A stretch of 64,000 bases of DNA from a virus (lineage: Duplodnaviria > Heunggongvirae > Uroviricota > Caudoviricetes). The stretch lies in IMG/VR virus record IMGVR_UViG_3300032050_000069. The stretch is one strand, 5' to 3'. Positions 22,320 to 57,695 of the stretch are shown one piece after another (the first letter of the stretch is position 1; the number at the start of each line of letters is the position of its first letter). The notes beneath the pieces were generated by a model that saw only the letters and a program-made list of their open reading frames with translations, was not told where the DNA came from and searched no databases. The translations under genes were made by a program, and so were the position numbers.

Positions 22320-23750
22320 ATGAAAAAATGGATACTACCTTTACTGATAATTGTTATATGTCTATTCGCTGAAAATGCGATTGGGCAGACTTATACACAA
22401 ACTTATATCGATAAATGTACCGGCGAGGTTAAGGTTGCAACTACAACTTTTATTAATGGTAATGCAGTAGTTTCTTTTTATAATGAAGTAAGAAGTTTTT
22501 CACCATTTGAAGTTCAGAGTGGAGCTACACAAGTTTGGATTAAAGCCATACAATTAAAATACCAACAAATGGGATGCCCAACTGCTGTTGTAGTTCAACA
22601 AACAGTTCAGCAAGCCGTTTCACAAGCAGCATCACAGGCTGCAAGTGCCGCAGCTTCACAGGCGGCAAGTTCAGCGGCCTCATCAGCGGCGAGTAGTGCT
22701 GCTAGTGGTGCAGCAAGTTCTGCGGCATCATCATCAGCGAGTTCTGCTGCAAGTTCTTCGGCTTCAACCGCCGCGAGTTCATCTGCATCAACTCCACCAC
22801 CCACATCATCTTCAACATCATCTACACCGCCTGCAAGTTCATCTTCGAGCAGTAATAGTTCATCATCTTCATCATCGAGTAGTAGTTCATCTTCATCATC
22901 AGAAACCAAAACTGAAACGAAGGCAGAAACTAAATCAGAAACAAAGAGTGAATCTAAAACCGAAGAGAAGAAAACTGAAACTAAAAGTGAGGAAAAGAAA
23001 GAGGAGAGCAAATCTGAAAGCAAAGAAGAAAAAAAGGAAGAATCTAAATCCGAAGAAAAGAAAGAAGAGAAAAAGGAAACAAAAAAGCAACAAAATCTAA
23101 ACCCACTATTAGTAGCTTCTGATTTAACGGTGGCAGATGATCAGGAAGGTAAATTTACAACCATTGCATCAGTAGGTGTTTCTAAATCATCTCTAATGGG
23201 TGATAAATCTTATAGTGCTAACCTAATGGTGTGGAGCACTCTTAATCAATTTGCACTTACTACCGGAACTACAAAGATGGATTTTAAAGATGGTAAGTTA
23301 AATTCAATCAGTTCGTATTCTTCTACCGGTGCGTATCTTAAAGGTAATTGGATGGGTTTATTGGGATACACTTGGATTAAACCACACCCTAAATGGGGAA
23401 CATATGGATATAATGTTGGTGCGATAGTATTGTTGTTAAAAAATGCTGAAAACAAATTCACAACATCTCTATCAACATCAGCAGTTGTATTTTGGACAAA
23501 ACCTTATTCATTCAGCAAAAAACTTACACTATCTCCACAAGTATTTATTATGAATTCCCCTATAAATTATGATACTTATAATGGAACTACTTTAGTAAAT
23601 AGACATTTTGGTGGATTAGTTGGAACATCTTTTGATTATAGAATAAGTAAAAGATTTGGATTTAGTGCAAACTACAAATTAAATGTGAATACTATGGGGG
23701 GTATTAAGGCTACCCATATGTTTATGATAGGAAGCCGAATGATACTTTAG
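22320..23750 (+). CDS. secreted protein with long S/A-rich and K/E/T-rich low-complexity linkers and a C-terminal beta-barrel-like domain
   Basis: Signal peptide. SAAS repeats and ETKTETKAETKSETKSE repeats. C-terminal ~250 aa with alternating pattern ending ...FMIGSRMIL (compare 9727 ORF ...FMIGTNFQF). Confidence 0.35.
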   Translation: MKKWILPLLIIVICLFAENAIGQTYTQTYIDKCTGEVKVATTTFINGNAVVSFYNEVRSFSPFEVQSGATQVWIKAIQLKYQQMGCPTAVVVQQTVQQAVSQAASQAASAAASQAASSAASSAASSAASGAASSAASSSASSAASSSASTAASSSASTPPPTSSSTSSTPPASSSSSSNSSSSSSSSSSSSSSSETKTETKAETKSETKSESKTEEKKTETKSEEKKEESKSESKEEKKEESKSEEKKEEKKETKKQQNLNPLLVASDLTVADDQEGKFTTIASVGVSKSSLMGDKSYSANLMVWSTLNQFALTTGTTKMDFKDGKLNSISSYSSTGAYLKGNWMGLLGYTWIKPHPKWGTYGYNVGAIVLLLKNAENKFTTSLSTSAVVFWTKPYSFSKKLTLSPQVFIMNSPINYDTYNGTTLVNRHFGGLVGTSFDYRISKRFGFSANYKLNVNTMGGIKATHMFMIGSRMIL

Positions 23751-24714: not shown

Positions 24715-24902
24715 TTTTTATAATATATAGATATAAAATTGAATTATTATGTTAGATAAACTAAACAAAATTTTAATAGCATTAGAAGATGCCGTAGATT
24801 CCGAAGATTGGTCTTTGGTTCAACATGCAATTGGTAAGTTGGAAGAATTGTATGAAAAATTAGAAATGGAAGATCAATTTGGTGATTACGAAGATTAAAC
24901 AA

Positions 24903-26069
24903 ATGAAAAACATCTTAATCCACTGTGAAAAGAAGTTCGTTGATGCCCTTCTAAATAATTCTCCATTTTTAGAAAAAGATTATTACTCTTATTCAACTGA
25001 TGAAATAACAAATTTATTAGAAGGGTATAACATTAAAATCGCAAGTGGGAAAAAGATAGAGAACGAAAGTGAGTATAGTGTTATAATAATTGATGAGTTA
25101 TCCGATTATAATATACACAATACAACATCGGTTTATTATTTTATACCTCCCATAGATTTTAACATTTCCGACCCATTCATAATGAGTAGGTGGCCAGAAT
25201 CAACATTAGATTCAAAAAGTGAAAATAAAGTTAAATGGGCAGAATCATTATATCCTAATCTAAAGTTTTTGGGTTCTAATTTATATCAAAGCGAAAATCA
25301 GATATTTGATTTATCATTGGTTTTAAATTTGAATAATCATAGCGGTAATTGGGGTAAGTATCATTTTGCAGCAGATAGATTATTTAAAGCAATTAATCAA
25401 AAAGCGTATAGATTGGATTATACCTTTAGAGAAGTTAAAAAAGAAAATAGAGTAAAATTTTTATTTGATTTAATAAATACATTAGATGAAAAGGAGATAG
25501 AGGAAATAAAAGTTTCTATGCATGGTGGATTTTTAAATAACGAAACTTATTATAAAGATGTTGAAGAGTTTTTTAAATCACAACAAAATTACTCTCTTTT
25601 TTTAGAATTGATAAAGTTAGATAGAAGATTTTTTAGTTTTGATGAATTATTAAATCCAAAAGCTGGATACGAAGCATGGCCGGTAAACAAATTAATTTAT
25701 AACACCCTTTCATCCGACATAGCAATCTATTTTGAAACTGCTAGGGAAAAGCCTGGCATTCTTAATACTATGAATCATTTGATTACCGAAAAAACTATCG
25801 ATTTATTAAATGTTAGAAAACCATTCATTCATATGACAAAAAATGTTGATGAATTTTTAGAACGATTTGGATTTTATAATTACAATAAGGAAATTTTTGA
25901 TAGTATTGAGGTGGATAAGCCTAAATTGATTAAAAAGATACTCAATATGGAAATTCAGTATTTTGAGGTTTTAATCGAAAAATTGAAGAATCTGGCCGAT
26001 AAAAATAAGGATATATTGGATTCATATTACAAAAAAAATACATTTTTATACAATTTAGTTCATAACTAA
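24903..26069 (+). CDS. hypothetical protein
   Basis: ORF-track start 24879 overlaps an upstream 49-aa ORF. ATG at 24903 (MKNILIHC) is the first non-overlapping start. Confidence 0.3.
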   Translation: MKNILIHCEKKFVDALLNNSPFLEKDYYSYSTDEITNLLEGYNIKIASGKKIENESEYSVIIIDELSDYNIHNTTSVYYFIPPIDFNISDPFIMSRWPESTLDSKSENKVKWAESLYPNLKFLGSNLYQSENQIFDLSLVLNLNNHSGNWGKYHFAADRLFKAINQKAYRLDYTFREVKKENRVKFLFDLINTLDEKEIEEIKVSMHGGFLNNETYYKDVEEFFKSQQNYSLFLELIKLDRRFFSFDELLNPKAGYEAWPVNKLIYNTLSSDIAIYFETAREKPGILNTMNHLITEKTIDLLNVRKPFIHMTKNVDEFLERFGFYNYNKEIFDSIEVDKPKLIKKILNMEIQYFEVLIEKLKNLADKNKDILDSYYKKNTFLYNLVHN

Positions 26070-32498: not shown

Positions 32499-32527
32499 GG
32501 GGGGTAGAAATACCCCCTTTTTTATTT
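32499..32527 (+). terminator. rho-independent terminator
   Basis: gggggta-gaaa-taccccc hairpin plus T7. Confidence 0.6.
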
Positions 32528-34865: not shown

Positions 34866-35138
34866 ATGGAAAATCTTATTAATCGCAATGGTGAAGAAAG
34901 AACCATAGAGCGAATTTCACATGATAGAGTTAGAGTTATGGGAAACTCTGCTTTCATCAGAAAATCCTCCGATAGTGAGGGAATCACAATGTTTGATTTT
35001 GAGGGTGGACCTTGTTTAAACGTTGGGGGTAAAATTAAATTTGAAAAATTGGATTGGTATATTCACAACATTATACAAGAAGATACCCAATATAAAGACT
35101 TCGCATCAGTCCAATTATTTGTTTCACCAATCTATTAA
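34866..35138 (+). CDS. hypothetical protein
   Basis: 90-aa ORF. Confidence 0.25.
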   Translation: MENLINRNGEERTIERISHDRVRVMGNSAFIRKSSDSEGITMFDFEGGPCLNVGGKIKFEKLDWYIHNIIQEDTQYKDFASVQLFVSPIY

Positions 35139-35144: not shown

Positions 35145-36164
35145 ATGAGAGAGATAATTTGTGCAGGGTGTTCCTTCACTAATTTTAATACTCTTAATGA
35201 GGATATGGTTTTAAATGGGATGACACCTGATATAGATGGTGTATCTCCATTAGGTTCGTATCCGGAAGCAATTCATCGTAATTATAGAAATAAAGTATAT
35301 AATGCGGGAATGGCTGGTAATAATATATCTACTTCGGTATTATCTATATTATCGATTGCAGATAGATTACTAAAAGAAGGTAAGAAAATTTCTATTATCT
35401 TACAATGCACCGAATTCACAAGAAAATCACATTATTTTCCAACCTCTTTTCAGATTATTAAAAACATTGCAAGTGATAATAGTTCAGTTCGCAATAATAA
35501 TTATTTATTTGATGGAAGTGAAAACGGATTTTTTCAATTCGGAACATTAAGTGACGTATCGCCAAATTTTTCAACAAATAAAAATTTAGTAGAGATAGCG
35601 AAAAGTATCGGAGAAAATTTGTTTAGCATTGAATCAACTTATATAGATTCAATTATACACATATTATTACTACAAAATTATTGTAAGGCTAACAAAATAC
35701 CATATAAAGTATTTTGCAAAACTGAATCATTTAGTTTGCCATTTGCCCCTCTATTCTATATTGATGATACAACAATAGATTCACAATTTAGATCTATTTT
35801 TATTAATAAACAATTTGCCACTAAAAAAAGATTATCGTTTGTAAATTCGGATCCATATATTAAGAATTTATTTGGATTATTGGATTTAGATAATTTTTGG
35901 TTTTTAGATGATGAAAATTGTAAATATGGTGGAATAACGGAATGGGTTTATCTGAAAAACATTTATAGAAATGGTGATAGTGAATATACACCATTAGTGG
36001 TTGAGGATATAGATGGAACTCCTACCCAAATAAAACCTATGTATCCAATAGAAAGAGTATTTGAGAAATTAGAAAACAATACATTCAATCCAAATGGCCA
36101 TCCCTCTTATTTTTATTGGGATTATTTTGTAAAATCTGAAATCGTAAAATGGGAAATATTATAA
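35145..36164 (+). CDS. SGNH/GDSL-like hydrolase family paralog
   Basis: MREIICAGCSFTNF N-terminal block of the paralog family. Confidence 0.35.
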   Translation: MREIICAGCSFTNFNTLNEDMVLNGMTPDIDGVSPLGSYPEAIHRNYRNKVYNAGMAGNNISTSVLSILSIADRLLKEGKKISIILQCTEFTRKSHYFPTSFQIIKNIASDNSSVRNNNYLFDGSENGFFQFGTLSDVSPNFSTNKNLVEIAKSIGENLFSIESTYIDSIIHILLLQNYCKANKIPYKVFCKTESFSLPFAPLFYIDDTTIDSQFRSIFINKQFATKKRLSFVNSDPYIKNLFGLLDLDNFWFLDDENCKYGGITEWVYLKNIYRNGDSEYTPLVVEDIDGTPTQIKPMYPIERVFEKLENNTFNPNGHPSYFYWDYFVKSEIVKWEIL

Positions 36165-37342
36165 ACATATATCCAATAGATTTTGATGAAAATGCAAATG
36201 GTAAATTTGTAAAGACAACCGATTTTAAAGATAAAGATTGGGTGTTAGGCAACATTTATTGGTATCCATTTTTAGAAAAGATATACAACTTTACATTTAA
36301 TTATTCCGAAGATAATACCATATTGTTTCTTACATATAATGGTATGGCCGAATCATTAATTTCTGAAAGGCAATGGTTTTTAGATGTTAAGAGGCAATTA
36401 GATAGTGGTAATTATAAAAAGGTTGTAGTTTATCAAAATGAAGTAAATTGGGATACTTTTCATAAAATACTGGAAATAGAAGATTTTTTTTACGAAATTT
36501 TTGGAGATGATGAAAGATTTGTATTTGTTAGAAACATTTTCAAATCTAGATTTAACTTCACTAAAATAAATGCTACATATACATTTGGATGTTTTCCATT
36601 TCAATTATTCCATAACTATTCGGAAACTTTAGATTTTAATTATGAGATAGAAAAGCAGTTTCATTTATTTTCAGCAAATTGTAATGTAAAAGAAGAAAGA
36701 CTCCATTTTTATCAATTTTTACAAAAGGGGAATTATTGGGATAAAGTAAATACATCGTTTTTTCTTCCATTATATAATAGGAATAAAAAAAGGTTTGAAA
36801 TTTCAGATTTTGTAAATGAAAAATTTTTACATGCAAATACCGGAAATACGAACTCTTTTGTTTCTCATTTGGGAGAATTGGATTTAAGTATTGGGTATCA
36901 TCCCAAAAAATTAAAATATGATGATTTCAATCAAGTAAAAAACTTAGCATTAAATGATAGTGTTGAATCTTTATTTCAAGTAATTTTTGAAACCCGTTAT
37001 CATTCTCCTTGTGGCATTGTATTAAGTGAAAAGATTTTTAAGGGTTTTTGTTACAAGTCTCCATTTATAGTTTTTGCTCAATATGGTGTAATTAAATTAC
37101 TCAAAGAATTTGGGTTTAAAACATTTGATTGGTTGGTAGATGAGAGTTATGATAATGAATTGGATGATAAGAAAAGATTTGAAATGGTTTTAGCGGAAAC
37201 TAAAAAATTATTAGATACACCATTCGATGAACTTAAATCTAAAATAGAAAAAAATTATGATGTATTAGAGCATAATCATAAAATGGTAAATGAATTTGCC
37301 TTATCAGAAATAGATAAAATATATAAATTATTCGATGTATAA
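36149..37342 (+). CDS. putative glycosyltransferase, GT10 fucosyltransferase-like (paralog of 40707..41933)
   Basis: FQVIFETRYHSPCGIVLSEKIFKG resembles the GT10 FxxxFEN(S/T)...(T/S)EK motif. C-terminal ~120 aa alignable with the 40707 ORF. Confidence 0.35.
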   Translation: MGNIINIYPIDFDENANGKFVKTTDFKDKDWVLGNIYWYPFLEKIYNFTFNYSEDNTILFLTYNGMAESLISERQWFLDVKRQLDSGNYKKVVVYQNEVNWDTFHKILEIEDFFYEIFGDDERFVFVRNIFKSRFNFTKINATYTFGCFPFQLFHNYSETLDFNYEIEKQFHLFSANCNVKEERLHFYQFLQKGNYWDKVNTSFFLPLYNRNKKRFEISDFVNEKFLHANTGNTNSFVSHLGELDLSIGYHPKKLKYDDFNQVKNLALNDSVESLFQVIFETRYHSPCGIVLSEKIFKGFCYKSPFIVFAQYGVIKLLKEFGFKTFDWLVDESYDNELDDKKRFEMVLAETKKLLDTPFDELKSKIEKNYDVLEHNHKMVNEFALSEIDKIYKLFDV

Positions 37343-38573
37343 TAAAGAAACATTTTGTGTGATGCCGTTTATGCACTTTTCCGTTTTTCAGGATGGAAAG
37401 GTAAAGCCGTGTTGTATGGCAAGTGATTTCTTTGAAGAGAACTTTAATGATTATGTTGATTTTGAACAATTTTATAAAAACGAATCTTATGAAAAATTAA
37501 GAGAGGATTTAAAAAGTGGAATAAAGAATAAGATATGTGATGCCTGTTGGAAAACCGAAGAAAGAGGTGGGAGAAGTTTTAGGCAAGAAAAGAATACACA
37601 TTTTCAAAAACAATATGATAAACTTATAAAAGGTGAATCTGATAAAAACGAATTGGTATTTTTAGATGTAAGATTTTCTAATCAATGTAATTTTAAATGC
37701 CGAATGTGTGGAGAGAGGGATTCTACAAGTTGGTATGATGAAAGAGCTGAGTATTGGGAAAAGGAAGTTGTAGATCCTGTGAGAGAAAAACTTAAACAAT
37801 GGAAATTAGACCACAGAGTATATGAACACATTGCTCCATTTAATAAAAAGAAACTTCACATTCTTAAAAATGATTTTAATAAAGAAGAATTAGAGCATTT
37901 GGAATATGTTTATTTAGCAGGAGGAGAACCATTGTACACAAGAAAAGTATGGGATTTCATAGAAATTATACCACATCCTAAAAATGTGACACTACAATTT
38001 CAAACAAACTTTTCTATATTAGAATACAAAGATACTTCTATTTTTGAATTCACAAAAGGATTTAAAAATGTAGTTTATTCTATATCATTAGATGGATTGT
38101 TTGAGACGGGGGAATTTCAAAGAACTAATTTTAAAACACAAAACTTCTTATCTAATCTAAAAAAATTAAACGAAGAGGTAAAGAATAATCCTAACATTAG
38201 CTATGATTTTACCTTTACCGCAACTTTATTAAATGTATTTCAATTTTTTGAAACCTATGATTACCTAATTGATAATGGGTATATAGCAGATTATTCTAAC
38301 ATTAGATTACAAATAGTAAGTTGGCCGAAACATTTAGATGCTAAAAACTTTGGATTAGAAGCTGAAATAGAAGAGTATTTTAGTAGAACTGAAATAAAAG
38401 GAGTTGAAAAGAATCCTTATTTATTGGGAGATATAAAAAATTACTTATTACATATTAAACAAGGGATAGAGGGTGATAAAGAAGAACACTTAACAAATCT
38501 AAAAAATTACTTAAATTGGTCTTCACTTTACAATAACCTACCGATACCAAAACATTTACATAAATTTTTATAA
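37335..38573 (+). CDS. radical SAM enzyme, paralog of 2977..4236
   Basis: CNFKCRMCG (CxxxCxxC), YLAGGEPLY, N-terminal CVMPFMHF...KPCC. Confidence 0.6.
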   Translation: MYNKETFCVMPFMHFSVFQDGKVKPCCMASDFFEENFNDYVDFEQFYKNESYEKLREDLKSGIKNKICDACWKTEERGGRSFRQEKNTHFQKQYDKLIKGESDKNELVFLDVRFSNQCNFKCRMCGERDSTSWYDERAEYWEKEVVDPVREKLKQWKLDHRVYEHIAPFNKKKLHILKNDFNKEELEHLEYVYLAGGEPLYTRKVWDFIEIIPHPKNVTLQFQTNFSILEYKDTSIFEFTKGFKNVVYSISLDGLFETGEFQRTNFKTQNFLSNLKKLNEEVKNNPNISYDFTFTATLLNVFQFFETYDYLIDNGYIADYSNIRLQIVSWPKHLDAKNFGLEAEIEEYFSRTEIKGVEKNPYLLGDIKNYLLHIKQGIEGDKEEHLTNLKNYLNWSSLYNNLPIPKHLHKFL

Positions 38574-38575
38574 CT

Positions 38576-38980
38576 ATGGAACAAAGAAAGTATTTACCAA
38601 CATTGGCTGAACTAATTGATAGATTGAGTATAATTCAGTTAAAGGAAGTTTTCATTACCGAACATAAGGAAGAATATGCAAAAGAAATTGCAGACATTGT
38701 GCATGATATAAACCTATGTTTGAAAGAAAGTAAAGAGGAATTGACGGGGGAAACGATAAGAGCAATAGTTGTTTTATCACAAATGAATCTACACATATGG
38801 ACAAACGAAACTAATGTGAGAAATGGTTCGGAAGGGCCAAATAAGTTAGCTCTAACGCATGGCTTAAATGGTATTCGAAACACCGCTAAGAATCGGATAC
38901 AAGAAGTAGTAGGTGGTAGAAAGGATTATAAGATTGATTGTTTAGCATCAGAATTTAAAGACTGGGAAATCAGTTGGTAA
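38576..38980 (+). CDS. hypothetical protein
   Basis: 134-aa ORF inside the modification cluster. Confidence 0.3.
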   Translation: MEQRKYLPTLAELIDRLSIIQLKEVFITEHKEEYAKEIADIVHDINLCLKESKEELTGETIRAIVVLSQMNLHIWTNETNVRNGSEGPNKLALTHGLNGIRNTAKNRIQEVVGGRKDYKIDCLASEFKDWEISW

Positions 38981-38993
38981 AATATATATCATT

Positions 38994-39728
38994 ATGAGAA
39001 TTTTAGTTATAGGAGATAGTTGCACCGATATATTCATTTATGGAAACGCAACTCGTTTATGTCCAGAAGCACCTGCACCAGTATTTGAGCCATCAAGAAC
39101 GGTAACAAACGATGGTATGGCCGGAAACGTTAGGGCAAATTTAGAATCATTAGGAGCAAAGGTTGAGTTAATTACCAACAAAGAGCAAATCACTAAAACT
39201 AGGTATGTAGATGTTAAATCAAACCAAATGTTTATTAGAGTGGATACATTGGATAAGGTGAAATCTGCATTTGACATTAATAGAGTAAATTGGGATGTTG
39301 ATGCTGTGGTGGTATCAGATTACGATAAAGGATTCTTAACCGAAAGTGATATACACTCAATAAGTGGAAGGCATCCTCTTACATTTATTGATACAAAAAA
39401 GCCGATAAACCTACAAACCTTTTCAGATTACACTTATATAAAAATGAATGAATTTGAATGGGAGTTGTGTGAAAAGAAAGGAGCTAAGTATGTTGATTGG
39501 GCAGATAAACTTATTATAACAATGAGTGAGAGAGGTTGCCTTTATCAAAATGAAGTGTTTCCGGTAAATAGAGATATAGAGGTAAGAGATTTAAGTGGTG
39601 CGGGTGATACATTTATGGCATCATTAGTATTCAAATATGTGGAAACAAAGGATTTAAAGGAATCAATTAAATTCGCTAATGAGTGTGCAACGAAAGTTGT
39701 TCAAAAAAGAGGTGTCACCACAATATGA
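38994..39728 (+). CDS. PfkB-family carbohydrate kinase (ribokinase / RfaE-domain-I-like)
   Basis: N-terminal MRILVIGDSCTDIF. C-terminal DLSGAGDTF (the PfkB GAGD anion-hole motif). Confidence 0.55.
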   Translation: MRILVIGDSCTDIFIYGNATRLCPEAPAPVFEPSRTVTNDGMAGNVRANLESLGAKVELITNKEQITKTRYVDVKSNQMFIRVDTLDKVKSAFDINRVNWDVDAVVVSDYDKGFLTESDIHSISGRHPLTFIDTKKPINLQTFSDYTYIKMNEFEWELCEKKGAKYVDWADKLIITMSERGCLYQNEVFPVNRDIEVRDLSGAGDTFMASLVFKYVETKDLKESIKFANECATKVVQKRGVTTI

Positions 39729-40705
39729 AACAAATAGATTTTTTTGGTTGTAGTTTCACCGAAGCACCAATGTGGGAAATGAATCCCAAATTAGGTGAGT
39801 TGGATATACTACTATATTCAATGCATACTCAATCTACAAAGCCGGTAAGTAATTTTTTAGAATTTGATTTGGCTTATAATAATCAAAGTGGATACAAAGT
39901 AAATAATTTTGGGGGAGGTAGTTTTGGAAATCATGTTATAAAAGAGATTCTTAAAAATAGAATTAAAAACTCCAATACAAAGGAAGGGGTAGCTATTGTT
40001 CAATTAAGTGCTTTATTAAGAAATACACAAAGTTATGAAAATATATTTACCTCACCATACTCCTCTTTGACCAAATCCCAAAAGTATGGCATTACTGAAT
40101 TTAATATAATAGGAGGAAATGTCCGAAATGATTATTTTGTTGAAACTGATAATTTAGAAGATTACTATAATTTACATATAAAAAATATAGAAGAAATTGT
40201 AGATTTATTAAAAACAAATTATTCAAATTATTTTATACATTTTGGTTGGGATGTTTCAACAAAAGAATTTGAAAGGTTATGGGGAAAATCTGATATAAAA
40301 AATTATGTTCAAACTTATGAATATGAATACCCTATTAATCATCTAGCATATTTTGAAAATCAATCAAAATACAGCATAGTTACGAAAAAATGTAAAGGTA
40401 ATATGGGGGGGATGTTAGATTATTCCGCAAACCATTTGGAAGAATCTTTAAGATATGTCCATCTGACATTAGACCATCATCCATCATACTTTTCTAATAA
40501 AATCTTTTATAAAGGTGTTATAAAACCATTTTTATCAAAACTAATAAATTTAGAAAAGGATTATTTTGAAGAAGATAATTTATTAAAATTTGAAGAATTC
40601 TTAAAAGTTTTATTGCCTACAAAAGAAAGCACCGATGGTAAGATTTATGGAGAGATGCAGGTAAAAATAGTAAATTACATTAAAAATTCTATCACAAATA
40701 AGTAA
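39725..40705 (+). CDS. SGNH/GDSL-like hydrolase family paralog
   Basis: ATG at 39725 overlaps the kinase stop (ATGA). MKQIDFFGCSFTEAPMW. Confidence 0.35.
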   Translation: MKQIDFFGCSFTEAPMWEMNPKLGELDILLYSMHTQSTKPVSNFLEFDLAYNNQSGYKVNNFGGGSFGNHVIKEILKNRIKNSNTKEGVAIVQLSALLRNTQSYENIFTSPYSSLTKSQKYGITEFNIIGGNVRNDYFVETDNLEDYYNLHIKNIEEIVDLLKTNYSNYFIHFGWDVSTKEFERLWGKSDIKNYVQTYEYEYPINHLAYFENQSKYSIVTKKCKGNMGGMLDYSANHLEESLRYVHLTLDHHPSYFSNKIFYKGVIKPFLSKLINLEKDYFEEDNLLKFEEFLKVLLPTKESTDGKIYGEMQVKIVNYIKNSITNK

Positions 40706-40706
40706 T

Positions 40707-41933
40707 ATGAAAAATTTGGTATTTTACAAATATGCACCTAATCATAATGAAAATTTAGAATTTGATGATTTTCATTTAGATTCCATCCATCAACCAGAGA
40801 GAGAATTTTTTAAAGCAAGAAAAGATTATTTTTATTCTTTTTTATCTGATTACAATATTATAGAAAATGAAAAAGAAATAAATGGGTTAGATAAATTCTA
40901 TTTAATTATAGGCTTTGATGATTCATTTAGGCAATTATTTTCATTACCAAATAGAAAAGATTTTACTGATTTAGTTTCAAATAATATAACCAAAATAAAA
41001 AAGGTAATATTTTGGGAAATGGATACTGATTGGACAAATTATACTTTAATGGAGTATAAAGAAAATTTTGTTAAATTTAATAGTTATTTTTCAGAATTAA
41101 AATTACCATATAAATTATTTTCAACTGTTTTTAAATTTAAATATGATAGTGATGTGGGTTATTTTGCAGCTCAGAATGCTATGACAATTGAAAAATTAGA
41201 TAATGAGTTATTGAAAAATGATTACTTTGATGCTAACTATAATAAAGAAAAAACAAAGTATTTCTATTCTGCGGCTAATAGTATAAACACCGATAGAATG
41301 CATTACTATAAATTTGTAGATGATAATAATCTATGGGATAAAAATAATTTGGCATTCTTTTCAACTTATAGAAATAATGAATTAGGGCAAGGATTTAACT
41401 ACTCACAAATTGTATATGATTACAATAGAGGTAAGGGTGGATTGGTGGAAATCGATGATTCATATATCTTTAAGCCAAAACCATTTGATGATGAAGAGTT
41501 TAAAACGATGGAGTATTCGTTATTAACCAATCTAAATAGATATAGTGATTCTCTTTTTGAAATGGTTTTTGAAACTATGTATGAATCATGTGAAGGGCAA
41601 ATTATACAAACATCGGAAAAAACTTTAAAACCATTTATTCAAAAAAAACCATTTCTTACATTCTCATATACTAATATGTTAAGTGAATTAAAAAAGTTAG
41701 GTTTTAAAACTTTTGATTTTATTTTTGATGAGAGCTATGATGAATTGGCAGACCATACAAATCGTCTTTATTACATATTAGACGAATATAAAACTATTTG
41801 TGATAGAGATATAAAAGAATTACATAATATAGTGAAGGAGAACTATGATGTTTTAGACCATAATTATAATAATATGATTACGATTTTAAATAAATTCAAA
41901 TCAGATTTCATAAACGAAATAGAAAATGGGTAA
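40707..41933 (+). CDS. putative glycosyltransferase, GT10-like paralog
   Basis: FEMVFETMYESCEGQIIQTSEKTLK motif. C-terminal homology with the 36149 ORF. Confidence 0.35.
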   Translation: MKNLVFYKYAPNHNENLEFDDFHLDSIHQPEREFFKARKDYFYSFLSDYNIIENEKEINGLDKFYLIIGFDDSFRQLFSLPNRKDFTDLVSNNITKIKKVIFWEMDTDWTNYTLMEYKENFVKFNSYFSELKLPYKLFSTVFKFKYDSDVGYFAAQNAMTIEKLDNELLKNDYFDANYNKEKTKYFYSAANSINTDRMHYYKFVDDNNLWDKNNLAFFSTYRNNELGQGFNYSQIVYDYNRGKGGLVEIDDSYIFKPKPFDDEEFKTMEYSLLTNLNRYSDSLFEMVFETMYESCEGQIIQTSEKTLKPFIQKKPFLTFSYTNMLSELKKLGFKTFDFIFDESYDELADHTNRLYYILDEYKTICDRDIKELHNIVKENYDVLDHNYNNMITILNKFKSDFINEIENG

Positions 41934-42609
41934 AATACTTTTTTTAGGTGATAGTTTTACTTGGGGACAGGGTTTGTATTTTTACAAATGGAAAGAGGAG
42001 GGTAGAGAACTACCAACTAATATAGGAGGTATGTATCCTAGTCATTCCGATTTAATTAGAGAGCAGGATTTAGTATATAAAGATAAATTATCCTTTACAG
42101 GTTTAGTATCCGATTACTATAATTTAGAACCAATAAAAAGAAATAAAAATGGCGGTAGTAATACCGATATATTATTAGATACTATCCCTTTAATAGATAC
42201 TTATAATAATTCTATACAAAAATTAGTATTTCAATTTACAACTATAAGTAGATACCAATTTAGAGATTTAAACATCGTTGATGATGATTCAATAAACCCA
42301 TCGTTTAATGATATGTTTGAGCAAAGGGCATTTAACTTTTATAAATTTATCGATGGGATACTAAAATACTATTCAGAGCTATATAAATTTCAATACTGTT
42401 TTATGGATTGGTTGGGTGATTTTTACAAATTCCAACCACATAAATTTGTTAAGTATTTATATAATGAAAAAAATCATTATTGTTTCAATCCATTATTAAA
42501 TGAGTATAAAATAGATATCGATATTAATAATCATAAAATTATTGATTTACATTTAAATAAAGATGCACAACATATATTATCAACTTCAATTATCAAACAC
42601 TTCGGATAA
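41926..42609 (+). CDS. SGNH/GDSL-like hydrolase paralog
   Basis: MGKILFLGDSFTWGQGLYF. Confidence 0.4.
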   Translation: MGKILFLGDSFTWGQGLYFYKWKEEGRELPTNIGGMYPSHSDLIREQDLVYKDKLSFTGLVSDYYNLEPIKRNKNGGSNTDILLDTIPLIDTYNNSIQKLVFQFTTISRYQFRDLNIVDDDSINPSFNDMFEQRAFNFYKFIDGILKYYSELYKFQYCFMDWLGDFYKFQPHKFVKYLYNEKNHYCFNPLLNEYKIDIDINNHKIIDLHLNKDAQHILSTSIIKHFG

Positions 42610-43348
42610 CTCAAAAGAAATAGTCTTTATAGGAGATAGTTTCACTTGGGGACAGGGCCTATATTTAGACTATTGGAAAGAAAATAGACCAGAACTATTT
42701 GAAAAGTTTTATGCTAATACAATAGAAAATGAAACACACTTACAGTGGATTGATCAGCAAGAATTTATTGGAAAAGAAGAAATGATTATTAAAGATAATT
42801 TATCATTTACCAATAAAGTAGGTGAATCGTTGGGTAGAAAAGTATATAAGAAAAAATATAATGGTGGGAGTATAACATCGAATAGACAGCTTTTAGAAAA
42901 CTTTTATAAATTAGAATCTGAAAAAAGAGATGTTATTTTAATTTTCCAATTTACATCTTTGGGGAGAGAGGATTTTGGTATAATTACTGATGAAGAATTC
43001 AGTAGGTATAATTTACTAATACATCGGCCTGATTCTGTTGTAAGAGAAATATTAAAAGATAGAATATACTCAATTTATAAATCCATAGATTCAATTATTG
43101 ATAATTTAGAAACTGAATTGGGTTGGAGATGCTACTATTTGGATTGGTTAGGAGATTTCTCTGAATTTGATGAAAAAAATAGATTTATTAAAATAAATGA
43201 TAATACATCCTTTTTTAATTTGGTTTTAAACAATCCAATAAAAATTGAATACAAAGATAAAATTTTCTATGATTATCATTTAAATAGAAAAGGAAATATA
43301 ATACTCGCGGAATCTATCTTAAAAAAAATAAATTTGGAAAATTCATAA
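42563..43348 (+). CDS. SGNH/GDSL-like hydrolase paralog (tandem duplicate, overlaps previous gene by 47 nt in another frame)
   Basis: KEIVFIGDSFTWGQGLYL. Own start codon upstream of the GDS block. Confidence 0.4.
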   Translation: MHNIYYQLQLSNTSDNSKEIVFIGDSFTWGQGLYLDYWKENRPELFEKFYANTIENETHLQWIDQQEFIGKEEMIIKDNLSFTNKVGESLGRKVYKKKYNGGSITSNRQLLENFYKLESEKRDVILIFQFTSLGREDFGIITDEEFSRYNLLIHRPDSVVREILKDRIYSIYKSIDSIIDNLETELGWRCYYLDWLGDFSEFDEKNRFIKINDNTSFFNLVLNNPIKIEYKDKIFYDYHLNRKGNIILAESILKKINLENS

Positions 43349-43828: not shown

Positions 43829-44305
43829 ATGAAAAAAGAAAAAATATATCTTTATCTAGATGATGTAAGGATACCAACTGAATTGAGTTGGGAAGTGGTT
43901 AGGAATTATGATGAGTTCGTTGCTCATATTCGTCTAAATGGTTTAGAGAATTATGAAGTTATTTCCCTAGATCATGATTTAGGTGAAGGTGCTATGCAGG
44001 AATACTATACTAATGTAAAACCAAACTACGAATTGGATTACAAAAGGATTGAAGAAAAGACAGGTATGGATTGTGCACGATTTTTAGTGGCGGAAAGCAT
44101 TACTAGAGGCATACCATTACCACAAATTTATGTTCATTCTGCTAATCCAATTGGAACTCACAATATATTAGGATATGTAAACAATTATTTGAGAAATCAA
44201 AGATTGCCAGAAACTTGTATAAAGGCAAAAATCGAACATACATATACTGAATTCCTTACCGAAGAAGAGAGAGTAAGAAGGTATAAAATAATGAAAGGAG
44301 AATAA
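43829..44305 (+). CDS. hypothetical protein with conserved acidic DD...DHD motifs
   Basis: IYLYLDDVRIPT ... VISLDHDLG. Possibly a receiver/phosphoesterase-like fold, unverified. Confidence 0.25.
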   Translation: MKKEKIYLYLDDVRIPTELSWEVVRNYDEFVAHIRLNGLENYEVISLDHDLGEGAMQEYYTNVKPNYELDYKRIEEKTGMDCARFLVAESITRGIPLPQIYVHSANPIGTHNILGYVNNYLRNQRLPETCIKAKIEHTYTEFLTEEERVRRYKIMKGE

Positions 44306-44640: not shown

Positions 44641-45243
44641 ATGAAACATTTGCTATTAATTTCGTTATTATCCTTCTTTACAACTGTTGGTTATTCACAA
44701 GATGTAAGGATTAAAAATAATGTGTTTGAAACACTTTATTCTCAATCATTAGAACAACCATTATGGATTAGGTATCGTTCTATAAATCGACCTACAAATG
44801 TGAATAGGGGAACTATGGATTTCTATAAAGAACCTAATGTTAAAACATCGGATGCGGAAGATTATGTGAAGAACATTTATGATAAGGGACATGGAGCACC
44901 AGCCGCATCGTTCTCCGATAATATGGAGAACTTAAAGCAAACATTCTCTTATTTGAATTGTATATTACAGGATCAATATCTTAATAGAGGAGAGTGGAGA
45001 TTGTTAGAGGAGCAAGAAAGAAAGTGGGATGATGTTGAAAATCTGACGGTGTTAATAACATTACACTTTGATAATCCTGTTAGAAGAATCGCAACAAACG
45101 CTGCAATTCCAGCTTATTTAGAAAAACACATATATTTTGAAAAATCAGGTAAATGGAGATGTTTTGTGTTTTTGAATGAAAGGCCTAAATATAAGTGGGA
45201 ACAATTGGAAAAACTTTGCGAAACAAAAGAACATAATAAATAA
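44641..45243 (+). CDS. secreted DNA/RNA non-specific endonuclease (beta-beta-alpha-Me, DRGH-type)
   Basis: Signal peptide MKHLLLISLLSFFTTVGYSQ. DKGHGAPAASFSDN matches the DRGH active-site block. Downstream N (LNCILQDQYLNRGEW). Confidence 0.55.
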   Translation: MKHLLLISLLSFFTTVGYSQDVRIKNNVFETLYSQSLEQPLWIRYRSINRPTNVNRGTMDFYKEPNVKTSDAEDYVKNIYDKGHGAPAASFSDNMENLKQTFSYLNCILQDQYLNRGEWRLLEEQERKWDDVENLTVLITLHFDNPVRRIATNAAIPAYLEKHIYFEKSGKWRCFVFLNERPKYKWEQLEKLCETKEHNK

Positions 45244-45641
45244 TGGCGTATAGTCAAAAAGTGCTTGGGCACTATGAAAACCCAAAGAATGTAGGAACGT
45301 TAGATAAGAGTAAATCAAATGTTGGAACGGGATTGGTTGGAGCACCGGAATGTGGTGATGTAATGAGATTGCAGATTGAAGTAAATGATGGTGTAATAAC
45401 TGATGCTAAGTTTAAAACTTTTGGATGTGGTTCGGCGATTGCAGCTTCATCATTAGCCACCGAATGGTTAAAAGGTAAATCAATTGATGAGGCACTTACA
45501 ATTGATAATATGGATTTAGTTGAAGAATTGGCCTTACCACCTGTAAAAATCCATTGCAGTGTTTTGGCGGAGGATGCAATTAAATCTGCGATAAATGATT
45601 ATAGAGTTAAACAAGGATTAGAACAATTAAATTTTGAATAA
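45243..45641 (+). CDS. iscU: Fe-S cluster assembly scaffold IscU/NifU-like
   Basis: YSQKVLGHYENPKNVG, GAPECGDVMRLQ, TFGCGSAIAASS, HCSVLAEDAIKSAI contain the three conserved Cys and the LPPVK-HC motif. Confidence 0.8.
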   Translation: MAYSQKVLGHYENPKNVGTLDKSKSNVGTGLVGAPECGDVMRLQIEVNDGVITDAKFKTFGCGSAIAASSLATEWLKGKSIDEALTIDNMDLVEELALPPVKIHCSVLAEDAIKSAINDYRVKQGLEQLNFE

Positions 45642-45964
45642 TGATTACGGTTACAGAAAACGCTTCTAAAAAAGTTAAATCACTTATTGAAGAAAGTGGT
45701 AATACGACACCTTATTTAAGAGTTGCTGTAAAAGGTGGTGGATGTAGTGGATTATCATATGACCTTTCGTTTGATGATGATGTTAAACCATCGGATATGC
45801 AGTTTGAGGATAAAGATGTAAAAATTTTAGTAGATGGTAAATCGTTTATGTATTTGTTTGGAACTGAATTAGATTTTTCTGATGGATTAAATGGAAAAGG
45901 ATTTGAATTTAAGAATCCAAATGCAAGTAGAACCTGTGGATGTGGTGAATCATTCTCTTTGTAA
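45641..45964 (+). CDS. iscA: A-type Fe-S carrier IscA/HesB-like
   Basis: KGGGCSGLSYDL ... CGCGESF C-terminal CxC motif of the HesB/IscA family. Confidence 0.75.
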   Translation: MITVTENASKKVKSLIEESGNTTPYLRVAVKGGGCSGLSYDLSFDDDVKPSDMQFEDKDVKILVDGKSFMYLFGTELDFSDGLNGKGFEFKNPNASRTCGCGESFSL

Positions 45965-46945: not shown

Positions 46946-46975
46946 AACCCCTTAATTATATAGGGGTTTTTTATT
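46946..46975 (+). terminator. rho-independent terminator
   Basis: aacccct-taattatat-aggggtt hairpin plus T-run. Confidence 0.55.
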
Positions 46976-49283: not shown

Positions 49284-50129
49284 ATGGAATTACTTAAAGA
49301 GTTTAAGAATATTGTAGATGAAGTGGCTTTATTAGAGGCTGAACTTTTAGAGCAGTTAGTATTGGAGGGAGTTGATGATCCTGGTATACTTAAATGTATC
49401 TTTATGGCAGGTGGACCTGGTAGTGGTAAATCATTTGTAGCACAAGAAATTTTTGGAATAGATAAAAATCTTCGAACATCAGTTGCGGCATCCGGTCTTA
49501 AAGTAGTCAATTCAGACCCTGCATTTGAAGCCCAACTTAAAAAGCATGGAATTAATCCAAAAGATTTAGCAAAAATAGAAAAGGAAGAACCCGAATTATG
49601 GGATTTTATTACAAAGAATCCACAAGGGCCAAGAGAAACCGCTAAAAAACAAGTAGCTAAATTTAAGGAATTTTATGAAGCCGGTAGATTGGGTATGATT
49701 ATCGATGGAACTGGTGACAACTATGATAAAGTTGCAAGACAAAAGAAAGAAGCAGAAGCATTAGGATATGATACCTATATGGTATTCGTAAATACATCAT
49801 TAGAAGTAGCTCTTATTAGAAATTCAGAAAGAGGTAGAACTTTGGGTGAGGAATTAGTAACTCAAAGTTGGAAAGAGTGCCAGGAAAATTTAGGTAAGTT
49901 TCAACAATTATTCGGAGGTGGTAATAAATTTATGATTGTTGATAATACTGAATATAAAAAAGGTAACTACACTTTCAAACATAAGAAAACTGGAAAAACA
50001 GTAGCAGCGGCTAAACCATTACAACCAGAGGTTAGAAAGGCTATTGATACATTTTTAAGATTACCAATTTACAATCCCATCGGAAAAAAATGGATAGAGG
50101 GAGCAAGATTAATAAAGAAATATTTTTAA
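49284..50129 (+). CDS. P-loop NTPase, nucleotide/nucleoside-monophosphate-kinase-like
   Basis: FMAGGPGSGKSF Walker A. 281 aa. Confidence 0.45.
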   Translation: MELLKEFKNIVDEVALLEAELLEQLVLEGVDDPGILKCIFMAGGPGSGKSFVAQEIFGIDKNLRTSVAASGLKVVNSDPAFEAQLKKHGINPKDLAKIEKEEPELWDFITKNPQGPRETAKKQVAKFKEFYEAGRLGMIIDGTGDNYDKVARQKKEAEALGYDTYMVFVNTSLEVALIRNSERGRTLGEELVTQSWKECQENLGKFQQLFGGGNKFMIVDNTEYKKGNYTFKHKKTGKTVAAAKPLQPEVRKAIDTFLRLPIYNPIGKKWIEGARLIKKYF

Positions 50130-53164: not shown

Positions 53165-54265
53165 ATGAAAAAGCTACTAATACCATTATCACTACTTTTA
53201 TTTAGTTGTGAGAAAAGTGATGTTTTACCAATACAACCTCCTTTAATTAATTCAGTTAAACCAAAGGAATTCCGATACGATACTCTTACATCAAACGAAG
53301 TTAGATTAACATCGACTAGATGGGATAATTTTAATGGTAAGGGATTGATTGGTTATGCGGATTTGAATAATGATGGTGAGGATGATGTAATTTATATTGA
53401 TGGAGATGTATTCATTAGGATATACAAAAAAGGCATATATGAATCATACAAAATACCAAATGTTTCATTCATCTTTGCCCGTTCAATTATACCTTTCGAT
53501 ATTAATGGTGATAATCTTTTAGATTTCGTTGTATTGGCCCACAACGATGAGCGATTACAATTTAATCCTGGTGAAGTTCCCTATGTTTTTATCAATAGAG
53601 GGAATAATCAATTTGAAACTAAAAAACTAAATACTAAGCAAGATTTCTGGCATTTAGGAACTGCTGGTGATTTAGATGGAGATGGTGATAATGATTTAAT
53701 TATTTGCACAGCGGGTTCAGTATCTTATTTTAAAAATGTTGGAGGAGAGTTAATAGAAACTCCAAATGTAATTCCTTCTTCATATAAAGATTCACATTAT
53801 GTAGGTGCATTGATTGATGATTTCAATAGTGATGGTATAAATGATGTAATCTTCTTTGGACATGAATACGCTATATTAAAAGATAAATCACAAATTGCAT
53901 TGACAAGGATTATGTATGGTAGCAAAAGTGGAATCTTTACCGAAGAAAACTCTATTACTTTAAATGAAGATAAAATTGGATTCGGTGTAATCATAGATGC
54001 ATTGTGTTATGATTTAAATAACGATGGGAAAGAAGAGTTAATACTAATTAGAACCGGAGACCCAATTAATTTTTCATTCTACAAAGGTTACCGCGTTCAA
54101 ATACTAAATCAAACAACCGATGTAACATCTCAATTTATAGATAATCCGTATTCATATACCGAAGGTTGGATTTGTATGATTAAATTAGTAGATGTAAATA
54201 AAGATGGGAAAAGGGATATAGTGGAATTGGATAAAAGGCGGGAAAAACATTTTATTCAAAAGTAA
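53165..54265 (+). CDS. lipoprotein with FG-GAP/VCBS-like Ca-binding repeats (beta-propeller-like)
   Basis: Lipobox LLFSCEKSD. Six repeats of the form D(L/I/V)N(N/G/S)DG(x)(D/N)D(V/L/F): DLNNDGEDDVIY, DINGDNLLDFVV, DLDGDGDNDLII, DFNSDGINDVIF, DLNNDGKEELIL, VDVNKDGKRDIV. Confidence 0.5.
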   Translation: MKKLLIPLSLLLFSCEKSDVLPIQPPLINSVKPKEFRYDTLTSNEVRLTSTRWDNFNGKGLIGYADLNNDGEDDVIYIDGDVFIRIYKKGIYESYKIPNVSFIFARSIIPFDINGDNLLDFVVLAHNDERLQFNPGEVPYVFINRGNNQFETKKLNTKQDFWHLGTAGDLDGDGDNDLIICTAGSVSYFKNVGGELIETPNVIPSSYKDSHYVGALIDDFNSDGINDVIFFGHEYAILKDKSQIALTRIMYGSKSGIFTEENSITLNEDKIGFGVIIDALCYDLNNDGKEELILIRTGDPINFSFYKGYRVQILNQTTDVTSQFIDNPYSYTEGWICMIKLVDVNKDGKRDIVELDKRREKHFIQK

Positions 54266-57054: not shown

Positions 57055-57126
57055 GTTGGTGTGGCGCAGTGGTAGCGCAGTAGACTGTTAATCTATTGGT
57101 CGTAGGTTCGAATCCTACCATCAACG
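57055..57126 (+). tRNA. tRNA-Asn (anticodon GTT)
   Basis: Cloverleaf folded by hand: acceptor gttggtg/catcaac, D GCGC-agtggta-GCGC, anticodon stem gtaga/tctat loop ctGTTaa, T gtagg-ttcgaat-cctac. Confidence 0.7.
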
Positions 57127-57157
57127 CAAGAAAGGTTCTTTGACATTGTGGGAAAAT

Positions 57158-57231
57158 AGAAGATTAGCTCAGTTGGTTAGAGCATTTGGTTTACATCCAA
57201 AGGGTCATAGGTTCGAATCCTATATCTTCTA
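57158..57231 (+). tRNA. tRNA-Val (anticodon TAC)
   Basis: Acceptor agaagat/atcttct, anticodon stem tttgg/ccaaa loop ttTACat, T atagg-ttcgaat-cctat. Confidence 0.7.
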
Positions 57232-57239
57232 CAATTTAT

Positions 57240-57321
57240 GCCTGTATCGCATAGTGGCAATTGCTGGAGACTGTAAATCTCCTCTCTTCGGAGTTCGGTG
57301 GTTCGAGTCCATCTGCAGGCA
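57240..57321 (+). tRNA. tRNA-Tyr (anticodon GTA), type II
   Basis: Acceptor gcctgta/tgcaggc, anticodon stem ggaga/tctcc loop ctGTAaa, long variable arm ctc-ttcg-gag, T ggtgg-ttcgagt-ccatc. Confidence 0.65.
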
Positions 57322-57326
57322 CAATT

Positions 57327-57399
57327 GGAGCTTTCGTATAGCTGGTGCGTACGTCCGCCTGAAGAGCGGAAGGATGCGGTTCGATTCCTCAAGGCTCCA
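57327..57399 (+). tRNA. tRNA-Phe (anticodon GAA)
   Basis: Acceptor ggagctt/aggctcc, anticodon stem tccgc/gcgga loop ctGAAga, T-loop ttcgatt. Confidence 0.65.
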
Positions 57400-57406
57400 C
57401 ACAATG

Positions 57407-57481
57407 AACTCGTAGCTCAGTTGGTTAGAGCTTCTCACTTTTAATGAGAAAGTCAATGGTTCGAGTCCATTCGGGTTCACA
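57407..57481 (+). tRNA. tRNA-Lys (anticodon TTT)
   Basis: Acceptor gaactcg/cgggttc, D tagctcagttggttagagc, anticodon stem tctca/tgaga loop ctTTTaa, T aatgg-ttcgagt-ccatt. Confidence 0.7.
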
Positions 57482-57539
57482 AAATAGTTTACTTCGGCAA
57501 CGTTCTATACAAAAATCGGAGCCGGCCATATAGATGTAG

Positions 57540-57615
57540 AGGAGGCAGGTTTATCTCGCCACTTTTGGGAAGTGGAACACGTTGGTTCGAATCCAACCAT
57601 CTATACAAAATTGGA
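57540..57615 (+). tRNA. tRNA-Pro (anticodon TGG)
   Basis: Acceptor atagatg/catctat, anticodon stem ccact/agtgg loop ttTGGga, T gttgg-ttcgaat-ccaac. Enlarged D-loop. Confidence 0.55.
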
Positions 57616-57621
57616 ATATAA

Positions 57622-57695
57622 CTCAATTGGTTAGAGTGTCATCCTGATACGGTGAAAGTTGAAAGTTCGAGTCTTTCTATTCCAACAAATAAGGT
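57622..57695 (+). tRNA. tRNA-Ile (anticodon GAT)
   Basis: Acceptor tggaata/tattcca, anticodon stem tcatc/ggtga loop ctGATac, T gaaag-ttcgagt-ctttc. Confidence 0.65.

Follow-up and report, generated by a model that had tools for sequence, protein, structure and literature searches.

The virus record IMGVR_UViG_3300032050_000069 of the IMG/VR database (Caudoviricetes) was analyzed over a stretch of 64,000 nucleotides, referred to here as the window, which is AT-rich (~32% GC) and in which the open reading frames (ORFs) matching called genes lie almost all on the + strand, as do all the features located below. Between positions 35145 and 43348, nine genes overlap or are separated by no more than 13 nt, in an operon-like packing, and this block is probably a cytoplasmic gene set for the assembly and tailoring of glycans in a large freshwater phage. 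The order SGNH-like, glycosyltransferase (GT), radical SAM, small protein, kinase, SGNH-like, GT, SGNH-like, SGNH-like, which had been read in a preliminary description of the sequence, was borne out by the coordinates and by the gene calls on identical metagenome contigs, with which these coordinates agree. The block opens with S-A1 (35145-36164), coding for a putative SGNH-fold, DUF6071-related Ser/His/Arg enzyme of 339 aa with the block I sequence GCSFT and a C-terminal GHPS, followed by GT1 (36149-37342), coding for a glycosyltransferase of predicted GT-B fold, by a radical SAM gene (37335-38573) whose product carries an N-terminal twitch/SPASM-like Cys cluster, by a small gene (38576-38980) for a protein of 134 aa that is helical by composition, and by a gene (38994-39728) for a short, 244-aa PfkB-family sugar(-phosphate) kinase. 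These are followed by S-A2 (39725-40705), the most divergent of the SGNH-like paralogues (326 aa, block I GCSFT, block V DHHPS), whose called start is the ATG at 39725, the GTG at 39683 of the ORF listing lying upstream; by GT2 (40707-41933), a second member of the GT-B family of GT1; by S-B1 (41926-42609), a minimal SGNH-like enzyme of 227 aa (GDSFTWGQG, block V DLHLN); and by S-B2 (42563-43348), an SGNH-fold enzyme of 261 aa that also bears GDSFTWGQG.

Two terminator-like hairpins, each followed by a T run and detected by a consensus scan only, may mark the upstream (32500-32517) and downstream (46949-46966) limits of the block. The 14.4-kb co-directional stretch between them holds the nine genes together with genes for IscU and for an ErpA/IscA-type carrier, and with S-C2 (45964-46836), the sixth SGNH-like paralogue (290 aa, GSSLS, block V DAHLG) and the last gene before the hairpin. 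The remaining paralogue, S-C1 (223-1032; 269 aa, GCSHS), is the first gene of a second, small set of sugar and radical SAM genes. A promoter scan gave a count no higher than the shuffled expectation. No signal peptide or membrane segment was predicted in the block proteins, all of which appear to be soluble, so that they are unlikely to act from outside the cytoplasm on surface polysaccharide that is already complete. The block as a whole had no megablast match among deposited phages, and tblastn with GT1, the small protein and, as the single S paralogue queried, S-B1 gave no match in 50,697 deposited phage genomes.

The common N-terminal block I that had been proposed for six genes (the S genes) was read in all of them, in the forms given above for the genes starting at 35145, 39725, 41926, 42563 and 45964 and at 223, and all six translations also display a C-terminal D/G-x-H-(P/L) block. 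Pairwise comparison of the window proteins by BLASTP joined only two S pairs, 41926/42563 (1.6e-25; 30% identity between S-B1 and S-B2) and 223/45964 (1.5e-19). A profile built from S-B homologues alone did not reach the other S paralogues, and iteration over related viral loci was required: an iterated profile search with jackhmmer, run on the window ORFs together with those of 79 related viral loci, gathered the six genes into one family of ~60 members, in which the weakest link was that of S-A2 (5e-9). When the resulting family hidden Markov model (HMM) was run against the window ORFs, exactly the six S genes and none other were matched, with E-values ranging from 1e-68 to 9e-22 (1.3e-68 for S-C2, 2.9e-54 for S-C1, 7e-40 for S-A1 and 5e-31 for S-A2). 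Pfam gave no match for S-A1, its best result on the S genes being a weak GDSL match for S-B2 (E 0.053), and neither PHROGs nor NCBIfam matched the S or the GT proteins. Across 61 family members, the Pfam model DUF6071 (PF19547) matched 15 (best 9.6e-14) and the GDSL models matched 5, weakly (best 3.9e-5). In the window, five S paralogues had no DUF6071 match at E<=1, gene 223 not having been scanned singly, and the S genes are best regarded as putative relatives of DUF6071, not as members by the Pfam model. Nothing functional on DUF6071 was found in the literature.

At the structural level, the S proteins show the three-layer alpha/beta/alpha, flavodoxin-like fold of the SGNH superfamily, and the modelled S-B2 consists of a single SGNH domain; for comparison, PatB is listed at 10.9 and OatA at 10.7. 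The conservation of the catalytic blocks was counted in two sets, of 61 and 65 family members. In block I, Gly is present in 100% and Ser in 98-100% of the members, the middle residue being, by frequency, Cys, Asp and then Ser. Block II is mostly kept, as N-x-G-x-x-G-x-x-N after strand 3 (N96 in 53/61, G101 in 45/61 and N104 in 47/61; alignment A2). Block III shows neither GxND nor its Asn, and its position is occupied by (W/F)(T/S)xxxR, in which Arg135 is 100% conserved. In block V, His is found in 61/61 and 63/65 members and Asp in about 50-63% only, with the spacing D-x-H, a pattern that appears to resemble that of Ser-His dyad esterases. Residues S26, R135 and H239 of S-B2 are family-invariant. 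Thus, the assignment of six SGNH paralogues holds as regards the fold, the catalytic Ser of block I and the His of block V, and fails as regards block III, which is absent, the Asp of block V being kept in part of the members; the S proteins are predicted to be cytoplasmic Ser/His enzymes built on an SGNH scaffold with an unusual Arg.

It had also been considered that the S genes could be structural, that is, tail-fibre or tail-spike esterases stripping acyl groups from the host receptor at adsorption. The proteins proved to be single-domain products of 227-339 aa with the catalytic strand right at their start, the modelled S-B2 is a lone SGNH domain without fibre or anchor domain, and the genes are interleaved with those of cytoplasmic biosynthetic enzymes, all of which makes a structural role extremely improbable.

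The two GT proteins share 35% identity over their C-terminal 240 aa (BLASTP 3.4e-31), and their N-terminal halves do not align; GT2 is matched by the GT family HMM at 1.3e-61. In GT1, the C-terminal donor domain carries FET...SEK...PF...GFKTF...DESYD and the N-terminal domain is variable. The C-terminal FET...(S/T)EK motif of the preliminary description is real and forms part of a longer one, xET..(S/T)EK..KP..PF(I/V)...GFKTF....DESYD, conserved in 51 homologues, the conserved residues of the family being concentrated C-terminally (R184, E281-T282, E294-K295, P305-F306, GFKTF and DESYD). A database search returned 142 homologues, all metagenomic, and no Pfam domain was present among the 120 matches listed. 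The AlphaFold model (mean confidence score, pLDDT, of 81.7) presents a GT-B fold with two Rossmann-like domains and the donor site in the C-terminal one. Foldseek returned only two matches below 1e-3 for this model, one of them the H. pylori alpha-1,3-fucosyltransferase 2nzw (7.6e-4). All GT-B folds score alike, at 5-10% identity. The family profile, run against PDB sequences, found no GT and one chance match only. The suggested GT10 likeness is therefore kept for the glycosyltransferase fold and the GT10-like motif, and lost for the Pfam GT10 model, which failed; from the model and the motif, it is concluded that GT1 and GT2 would represent an unclassified GT-B family with a GT10-like donor-site motif, not GT10. 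A third ORF, at 24879-26069 (396 aa), bears a YFET...ITEK...KPFI...FGF motif without DESYD and may be a very divergent third GT; it was set aside as a motif-level lead only, its BLASTP match to GT1 having an E-value of 0.001 and the family HMM, even with iteration, giving no match.

The distribution of this GT family is markedly uneven. IMG/VR yielded at least 580 confirmed relatives, and the genomes of 185,579 prokaryotic species (one genome each) yielded three, all of them on contigs of metagenome-assembled genomes (MAGs). The genome scan employed a narrower motif from a narrower alignment, which catches ~14% of the viral members and has a correspondingly lower sensitivity, so that the enrichment in viruses is large but not exact; the family looks largely virus-restricted. 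Since this restriction is shared with the T4 enzymes, a role in DNA hypermodification was weighed, in which the GT-B enzymes would glycosylate hydroxymethylated phage bases and the other enzymes would tailor the sugars, shielding the genome from restriction; phage GT arrays can build DNA-linked glycans, as stated in the work of Pyle et al. 2024 cited in PMC12619734. However, the even scores of all GT-B folds do not single out such enzymes, the window showed neither a hydroxymethylase nor a base-modifying enzyme, its 2-oxoglutarate (2OG) oxygenase matching 2OG-FeII_Oxy_3/4, and the deoxysugar, methyl and acyl tailoring genes of related loci suit surface glycans better. DNA hypermodification is consequently considered unlikely.

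The label of PfkB kinase was confirmed by Pfam (PfkB, 70.6 bits against a cutoff of 25.8) and by the motifs LSGAGDT (GAGD) and MNEFE (NxxE). The best NCBIfam match of the kinase is rfaE_dom_I/heptose-7-phosphate kinase (HldE domain I), and it falls under the equivalog cutoff of TIGR02198 (122 bits against 345), the protein being ~70 aa shorter than the model; it matches PDB 4e84 at 3e-11. Among deposited phages, its closest relatives are the "carbohydrate kinases" of T4-like cyanophages (36-48% identical), and in one of them, S-SM2, the homologue sits among genes for a phosphoheptose isomerase, a nucleotidyltransferase, an epimerase and a GT11 enzyme. A probable partner of the kinase is encoded at 1871-2326, a nucleotidyltransferase of the cytidylyl/adenylyltransferase family (Pfam CTP_transf_like; cyt_tran_rel, 60.7 bits against a cutoff of 27.7, which is exceeded) whose best match is rfaE_dom_II (HldE domain II, TIGR02199), at 65.5 bits against an equivalog cutoff of 181.5.

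The small protein encoded between the radical SAM enzyme and the kinase is the most conserved gene product of the block, with 90-94% identity in relatives in which the identity of the GTs falls to 51-60%. It is represented by 521 clusters and occurs on more than 500 contigs of IMG/VR at 73-90% identity, the range over viral contigs, phages of 200-335 kb among them, being 73-94%. Its only recognizable similarity is a weak one to DUF4254, on which nothing functional was found in the literature, and it matched no PDB sequence. Sugar genes of the GT1, GT2, epimerase/dehydratase, methyltransferase and RmlC-like families are its neighbors throughout the loci collected around it (L095-L174); the kinase follows it in 10 of these 80 loci, and in L156 the order is epimerase, small protein, kinase and a HAD-phosphatase/NTP-transferase fusion. 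In some relatives it occurs in duplicate within a protein of ~610 aa, or joined to further domains, and the fused domains gave no functional clue.

The radical SAM enzyme of the block was identified beyond its initial label by NCBIfam NF033640 (N_Twi_rSAM, 264.6 bits against a cutoff of 170) and by the CxxxCxxC motif at C118/C122/C125, which is invariant, as are the N-terminal C8, C26/C27, C68 and C71. Its residues 8-72 match Pfam Radical_SAM and SPASM, no PDB sequence was matched, and nothing functional on the twitch radical SAM family was found in the literature. A second N-twitch enzyme (2977-4236; N_Twi_rSAM, 260.9 bits against 170), which matches the first at 2e-10 by BLASTP, belongs to the second small related gene group at 223-4972, composed of S-C1, the HldE-domain-II-like nucleotidyltransferase, a 4Fe-4S ferredoxin (2304-2618), an unannotated ORF (2657-2959), this radical SAM gene and a 2OG-Fe(II) oxygenase gene (4223-4972), the ferredoxin and the oxygenase being assigned from Pfam tables. 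Downstream of the block, the IscU scaffold (45243-45641; NCBIfam IscU, 213.3 bits against 192.4) and the ErpA/IscA-type carrier (45641-45964; NCBIfam ErpA, 126.7 bits against 117) would, with the ferredoxin, be the likely source of Fe-S clusters and electrons for both radical SAM enzymes. An anti-phage defense system was rejected as a candidate, the only PADLOC match being a generic radical SAM resemblance to pVip (8.6e-6, 23 bits).

Enzymes of the SPASM/twitch type are mostly peptide maturases, and a single viral locus may hold an array of as many as 9 radical SAM genes; moreover, small conserved ORFs lie just upstream of the block (for instance, at 34866-35138). These features raise the alternative of a maturation similar to that of ribosomally synthesized and post-translationally modified peptides (RiPPs), in which the twitch enzyme would cross-link or epimerize a peptide or phage protein, the SGNH-like proteins would act as esterases or proteases and the GTs would add a single sugar. 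However, other loci with the same families set them among genuine nucleotide-sugar enzymes, the present window encodes a kinase as well as a nucleotidyltransferase, and no recognizable precursor peptide or RiPP recognition element (RRE) domain was found, which leaves peptide maturation quite improbable.

The organization of the block was compared across viral loci. The entire nine-gene order is kept in two of them, L094 and L093, in which the GT orthologues are 51-60% identical to those of the window. The identities in L094 and L093, respectively, are 94% and 90% for the small protein, 93% and 84% for the kinase, 72% and 60% for the radical SAM enzyme, 65% and 60% for S-A1, 58% and 60% for GT1, 51% and 59% for GT2, 57% and 61% for S-B1, 48% and 41% for S-A2, and 39% in both for S-B2. 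In the 79 viral loci anchored on the GT family, N-twitch radical SAM genes are found in 40 and S genes in 29, with 25 direct S-GT adjacencies. The 80 loci anchored on the radical SAM family (L175-L254), which overlap with the GT-anchored ones in one locus only, contain 245 radical SAM ORFs, in tandem arrays reaching the number given above; in the 54 of these loci that are independent and at least 12 kb long, the GT family occurs in 31 and the S family in 39. The preliminary description had seen in the block an internally duplicated SGNH-GT cassette, and this does not hold for the SGNH genes. S-A1 and S-A2 share 15% identity in profile columns and are each closer to proteins of other phages, and among S-A1, S-A2, S-B1 and S-B2 only S-B1 and S-B2 are mutual nearest relatives within the family. 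Because they are each other's nearest relatives, S-B1 and S-B2 are taken as a tandem duplicate on the grounds of sequence relatedness; because S-A1 and S-A2 are not, and S-GT adjacency is seen across phages, the two S-GT pairs would reflect a recurrent functional pairing and not a local cassette duplication.

The same families are found in the company of sugar genes in other phages, and this context constitutes the strongest support for a glycan-related function. In L011 they adjoin genes for an RmlC-like protein, an NAD epimerase/dehydratase, a thiamine pyrophosphate (TPP) enzyme, five methyltransferases and a SPASM radical SAM enzyme, and in further phages they lie among RmlC-like epimerases, NAD-dependent epimerase/dehydratases, methyltransferases, GT1/GT2 genes and a HAD-nucleotidyltransferase fusion. 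Variation among near-identical strains (at least 99.8% identical elsewhere) is concentrated in two genes of the block: GT1 has 74.7% nucleotide identity in one contig (L006, 2-1063) and the radical SAM gene is 94-97% identical in three contigs (L002, L005 and L006), in which the remaining genes compared are 99.1-100% identical. This divergence points to a local replacement of alleles at GT1 and the radical SAM gene.

The probable function of the block as a cytoplasmic glycan-assembly and glycan-tailoring set can be laid out as a sequence of steps. First, the PfkB kinase, whose family and best match are clear, would phosphorylate a sugar phosphate of the heptose-7-phosphate type. Second, the kinase and the HldE-domain-II-like nucleotidyltransferase would yield a nucleotide-activated sugar, and the conserved small protein encoded beside the kinase may take part in this core activation step. 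Third, GT1 and GT2, which display the GT-B fold and combine a common donor-binding C-terminal domain with unrelated N-terminal acceptor domains, would act as glycosyltransferases placing sugars onto two different acceptor positions. Fourth, the twitch-domain radical SAM enzyme would carry out radical tailoring, such as sugar oxidation, epimerization or dehydration, the phage IscU, IscA-type carrier and ferredoxin providing its Fe-S clusters and electrons. Fifth, the SGNH-fold Ser/His/Arg enzymes, with their invariant residues and recurrent GT adjacency, would acylate or deacylate the sugars, each of these enzymes probably forming a pair with a GT.

Several observations weigh against this scheme. 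The co-occurrence counts were obtained without a formal background model. The kinase accompanies the GT family in only 1 of the 79 GT-anchored loci and in none of the 80 radical SAM-anchored ones, and this rarity implies that the GT donor is not generally the product of the kinase. As both the kinase and the nucleotidyltransferase score far under the equivalog cutoffs, the sugar may not be heptose, and neither a GmhA-type isomerase nor a GmhB-type phosphatase was seen in the window. Neither GT1 nor GT2 matched Pfam Glyco_transf_10 at E<=1, the GT family having no Pfam or PDB sequence match, and the activity, donor, acceptor and product assigned to the GT-B, S and N-twitch radical SAM families are predictions drawn from sequence. 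Finally, twitch/SPASM radical SAM enzymes often modify peptides, not sugars.

As to the acceptor, a macromolecule made by the phage itself, most likely a virion protein, is tentatively put forward, at a confidence that stays low; phage DNA, in line with what was said of hypermodification, is an unlikely acceptor. Two observations speak for a phage-specific target, namely the occurrence of the GT family mostly in viral contigs and the conservation of the block within its lineage. A possible but doubtful alternative is a precursor of the host envelope glycan. Intermediates of O-antigen, capsule or lipopolysaccharide (LPS) core would be built or altered on the cytoplasmic face of the membrane and exported by host flippases and ligases, with receptors being changed and superinfection blocked. 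The kinase and the nucleotidyltransferase resemble the LPS heptose pathway, soluble GT-B enzymes commonly use lipid-linked acceptors, and among the other genes of the phage are those for an outer-membrane TonB-dependent-receptor-like protein and for a GT2-family protein. Besides, "radical SAM cassettes" were described in hypervariable regions of pelagimyophages and cyanomyophages (Zaragoza-Solas et al. 2020, PMC7029224), and host-surface remodeling is the standard reading of the GT, rfaE and radical SAM cassettes in such regions of aquatic myophages. However, the near absence of the GT family from the species genomes (the three MAG contigs, by the ~14%-sensitive scan) relative to the viral loci, the lack of any initiating transferase, flippase, polymerase or membrane acyltransferase found in the window, and a block that is syntenically conserved and not island-like are all at odds with it.

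A broader proposal, more speculative and rather doubtful, would unite the N-twitch radical SAM enzymes, the DESYD-type GT-B enzymes and the Ser/His/Arg SGNH-like enzymes in a single modular system specific to phages. Such a system would assemble acylated glycans with radical tailoring on a target made by the phage (virion proteins or DNA) and would diversify by array expansion and cassette exchange. The allele replacement at GT1 and the radical SAM gene would then reflect an arms race, and the highly conserved 134-aa protein could act in the nucleotide-sugar metabolism of phages as a new core enzyme or as a specificity factor.

Regarding the phage itself, sequence identical to that of the window is present in many freshwater metagenomes, S-B2 being found on contigs of up to 103 kb and another window gene on one contig of 0.2-1 Mb. 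That the phage is large is suggested by the genes around the block, which code for a GH19 endolysin, an HNH endonuclease, an RNA ligase, a dUTPase and 22 tRNAs; the tRNA array (57055-61482) covers most amino acids, and arrays of such size are typical of very large phages. An 825-aa ORF at 16232-18709 combines CarbopepD_reg_2, Plug and outer-membrane beta-barrel domains and is TonB-dependent-receptor/SusC-like, scoring 177 bits against NCBIfam TonB-Xanth-Caul, under the cutoff of 310; as an auxiliary gene it is unusual. A TonB-dependent-receptor-like gene with a CarboxypepD_reg domain suggests a possible Bacteroidota host, and large freshwater Bacteroidota phages with several core GTs have been described (PMC12619734). 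Against such a host, the related L093 possesses, as cyanophages do, genes for a heme oxygenase and a bilin reductase. The latter, which is ferredoxin-dependent, and the heme oxygenase are inserted at 14450-15696 of that locus, between S-A2 and GT2 of a block in which synteny is otherwise kept.

Other window genes were recorded besides those of the two sugar-related groups. In the ORFs at 5743-9727, 9727-10617 and 22320-23750, two large adjacent paralogues of 561 and 765 aa match each other at an E-value of 1e-11, and a C-terminal segment is common to ORFs of 296 and 476 aa (E 3e-5); these ORFs with shared segments, at 5743-10617 and 22320-23750, seem to resemble exchangeable tail-fibre modules, and they gave no Pfam or PHROG match. 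According to precomputed Pfam tables only, auxiliary genes encode a cREC_REC receiver-like protein (43829-44305), an Endonuclease_NS nuclease that seems to carry a signal sequence at its N-terminus (44641-45243), a Zeta_toxin/AAA_33 kinase-like protein (49284-50129) and an FG-GAP repeat protein (53165-54265).

A block of phage sugar genes is in itself a known kind of system. As far as the literature shows, no description was found of the three-family unit, of the largely viral GT family or of the conserved small protein. The sugar genes of aquatic phages are usually dismissed as "LPS genes", and a more specific picture is offered here, in which three uncharacterized families make up a recurrent unit in hundreds of viral contigs, often in arrays. 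Should the product be attached to virions or DNA, environmental phages would have in it a widespread and hitherto unstudied means of changing the chemistry of their own surface or genome; should it modify the host envelope, the block would provide a new enzymatic toolkit for receptor masking. Under either reading, concrete proteins and residues are defined for biochemical testing.

Among known systems, the closest in content are the LPS/heptose and GT clusters of T4-like cyanomyophages and pelagimyophages (S-SM2, P-SSM2), which likewise include nucleotidyltransferases, GTs and a sugar kinase of the same family (the 36-48% identical relatives mentioned above). They differ in that no GmhA or epimerase genes were found in this window, and in that those clusters are variable, whereas the present block is syntenically conserved within its lineage. 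With the SGNH/GDSL superfamily (CE2/CE3, PatB, OatA-C), the S family diverges in the replacement of GxND in block III by (T/S)xxxR, with its fully conserved Arg, in the optional Asp with D-x-H spacing, in the residue before Ser, which is usually Cys, and in the predicted cytoplasmic location of the S proteins of this phage. The GT10 enzymes (H. pylori FucT, FUT9) share with the phage GT family a GT-B fold and a comparable FE(N/T)...(T/S)EK donor-site motif after a conserved Arg, a motif known from the GT10 literature; the phage family departs from them in its extra GFKTF...DESYD helical tail and its longer spacing between FET and SEK.

The capsids and tails of mycobacteriophages are reportedly glycosylated, as is said to have been shown by Freeman et al. 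in 2023. The machineries that decorate the particles of mycobacteriophages and the capsids of chloroviruses and mimiviruses resemble the present block in having soluble, virus-specific GTs and tailoring enzymes that work in the cytoplasm without host export; no sequence relation between their GTs and the phage GT family was found. Serotype conversion by GtrABC and Oac offers a further parallel, since phage genes there also glycosylate or O-acetylate a glycan. In that case, however, the enzymes are integral membrane proteins acting at or beyond the inner membrane, whereas the proteins of this block are predicted to be soluble.

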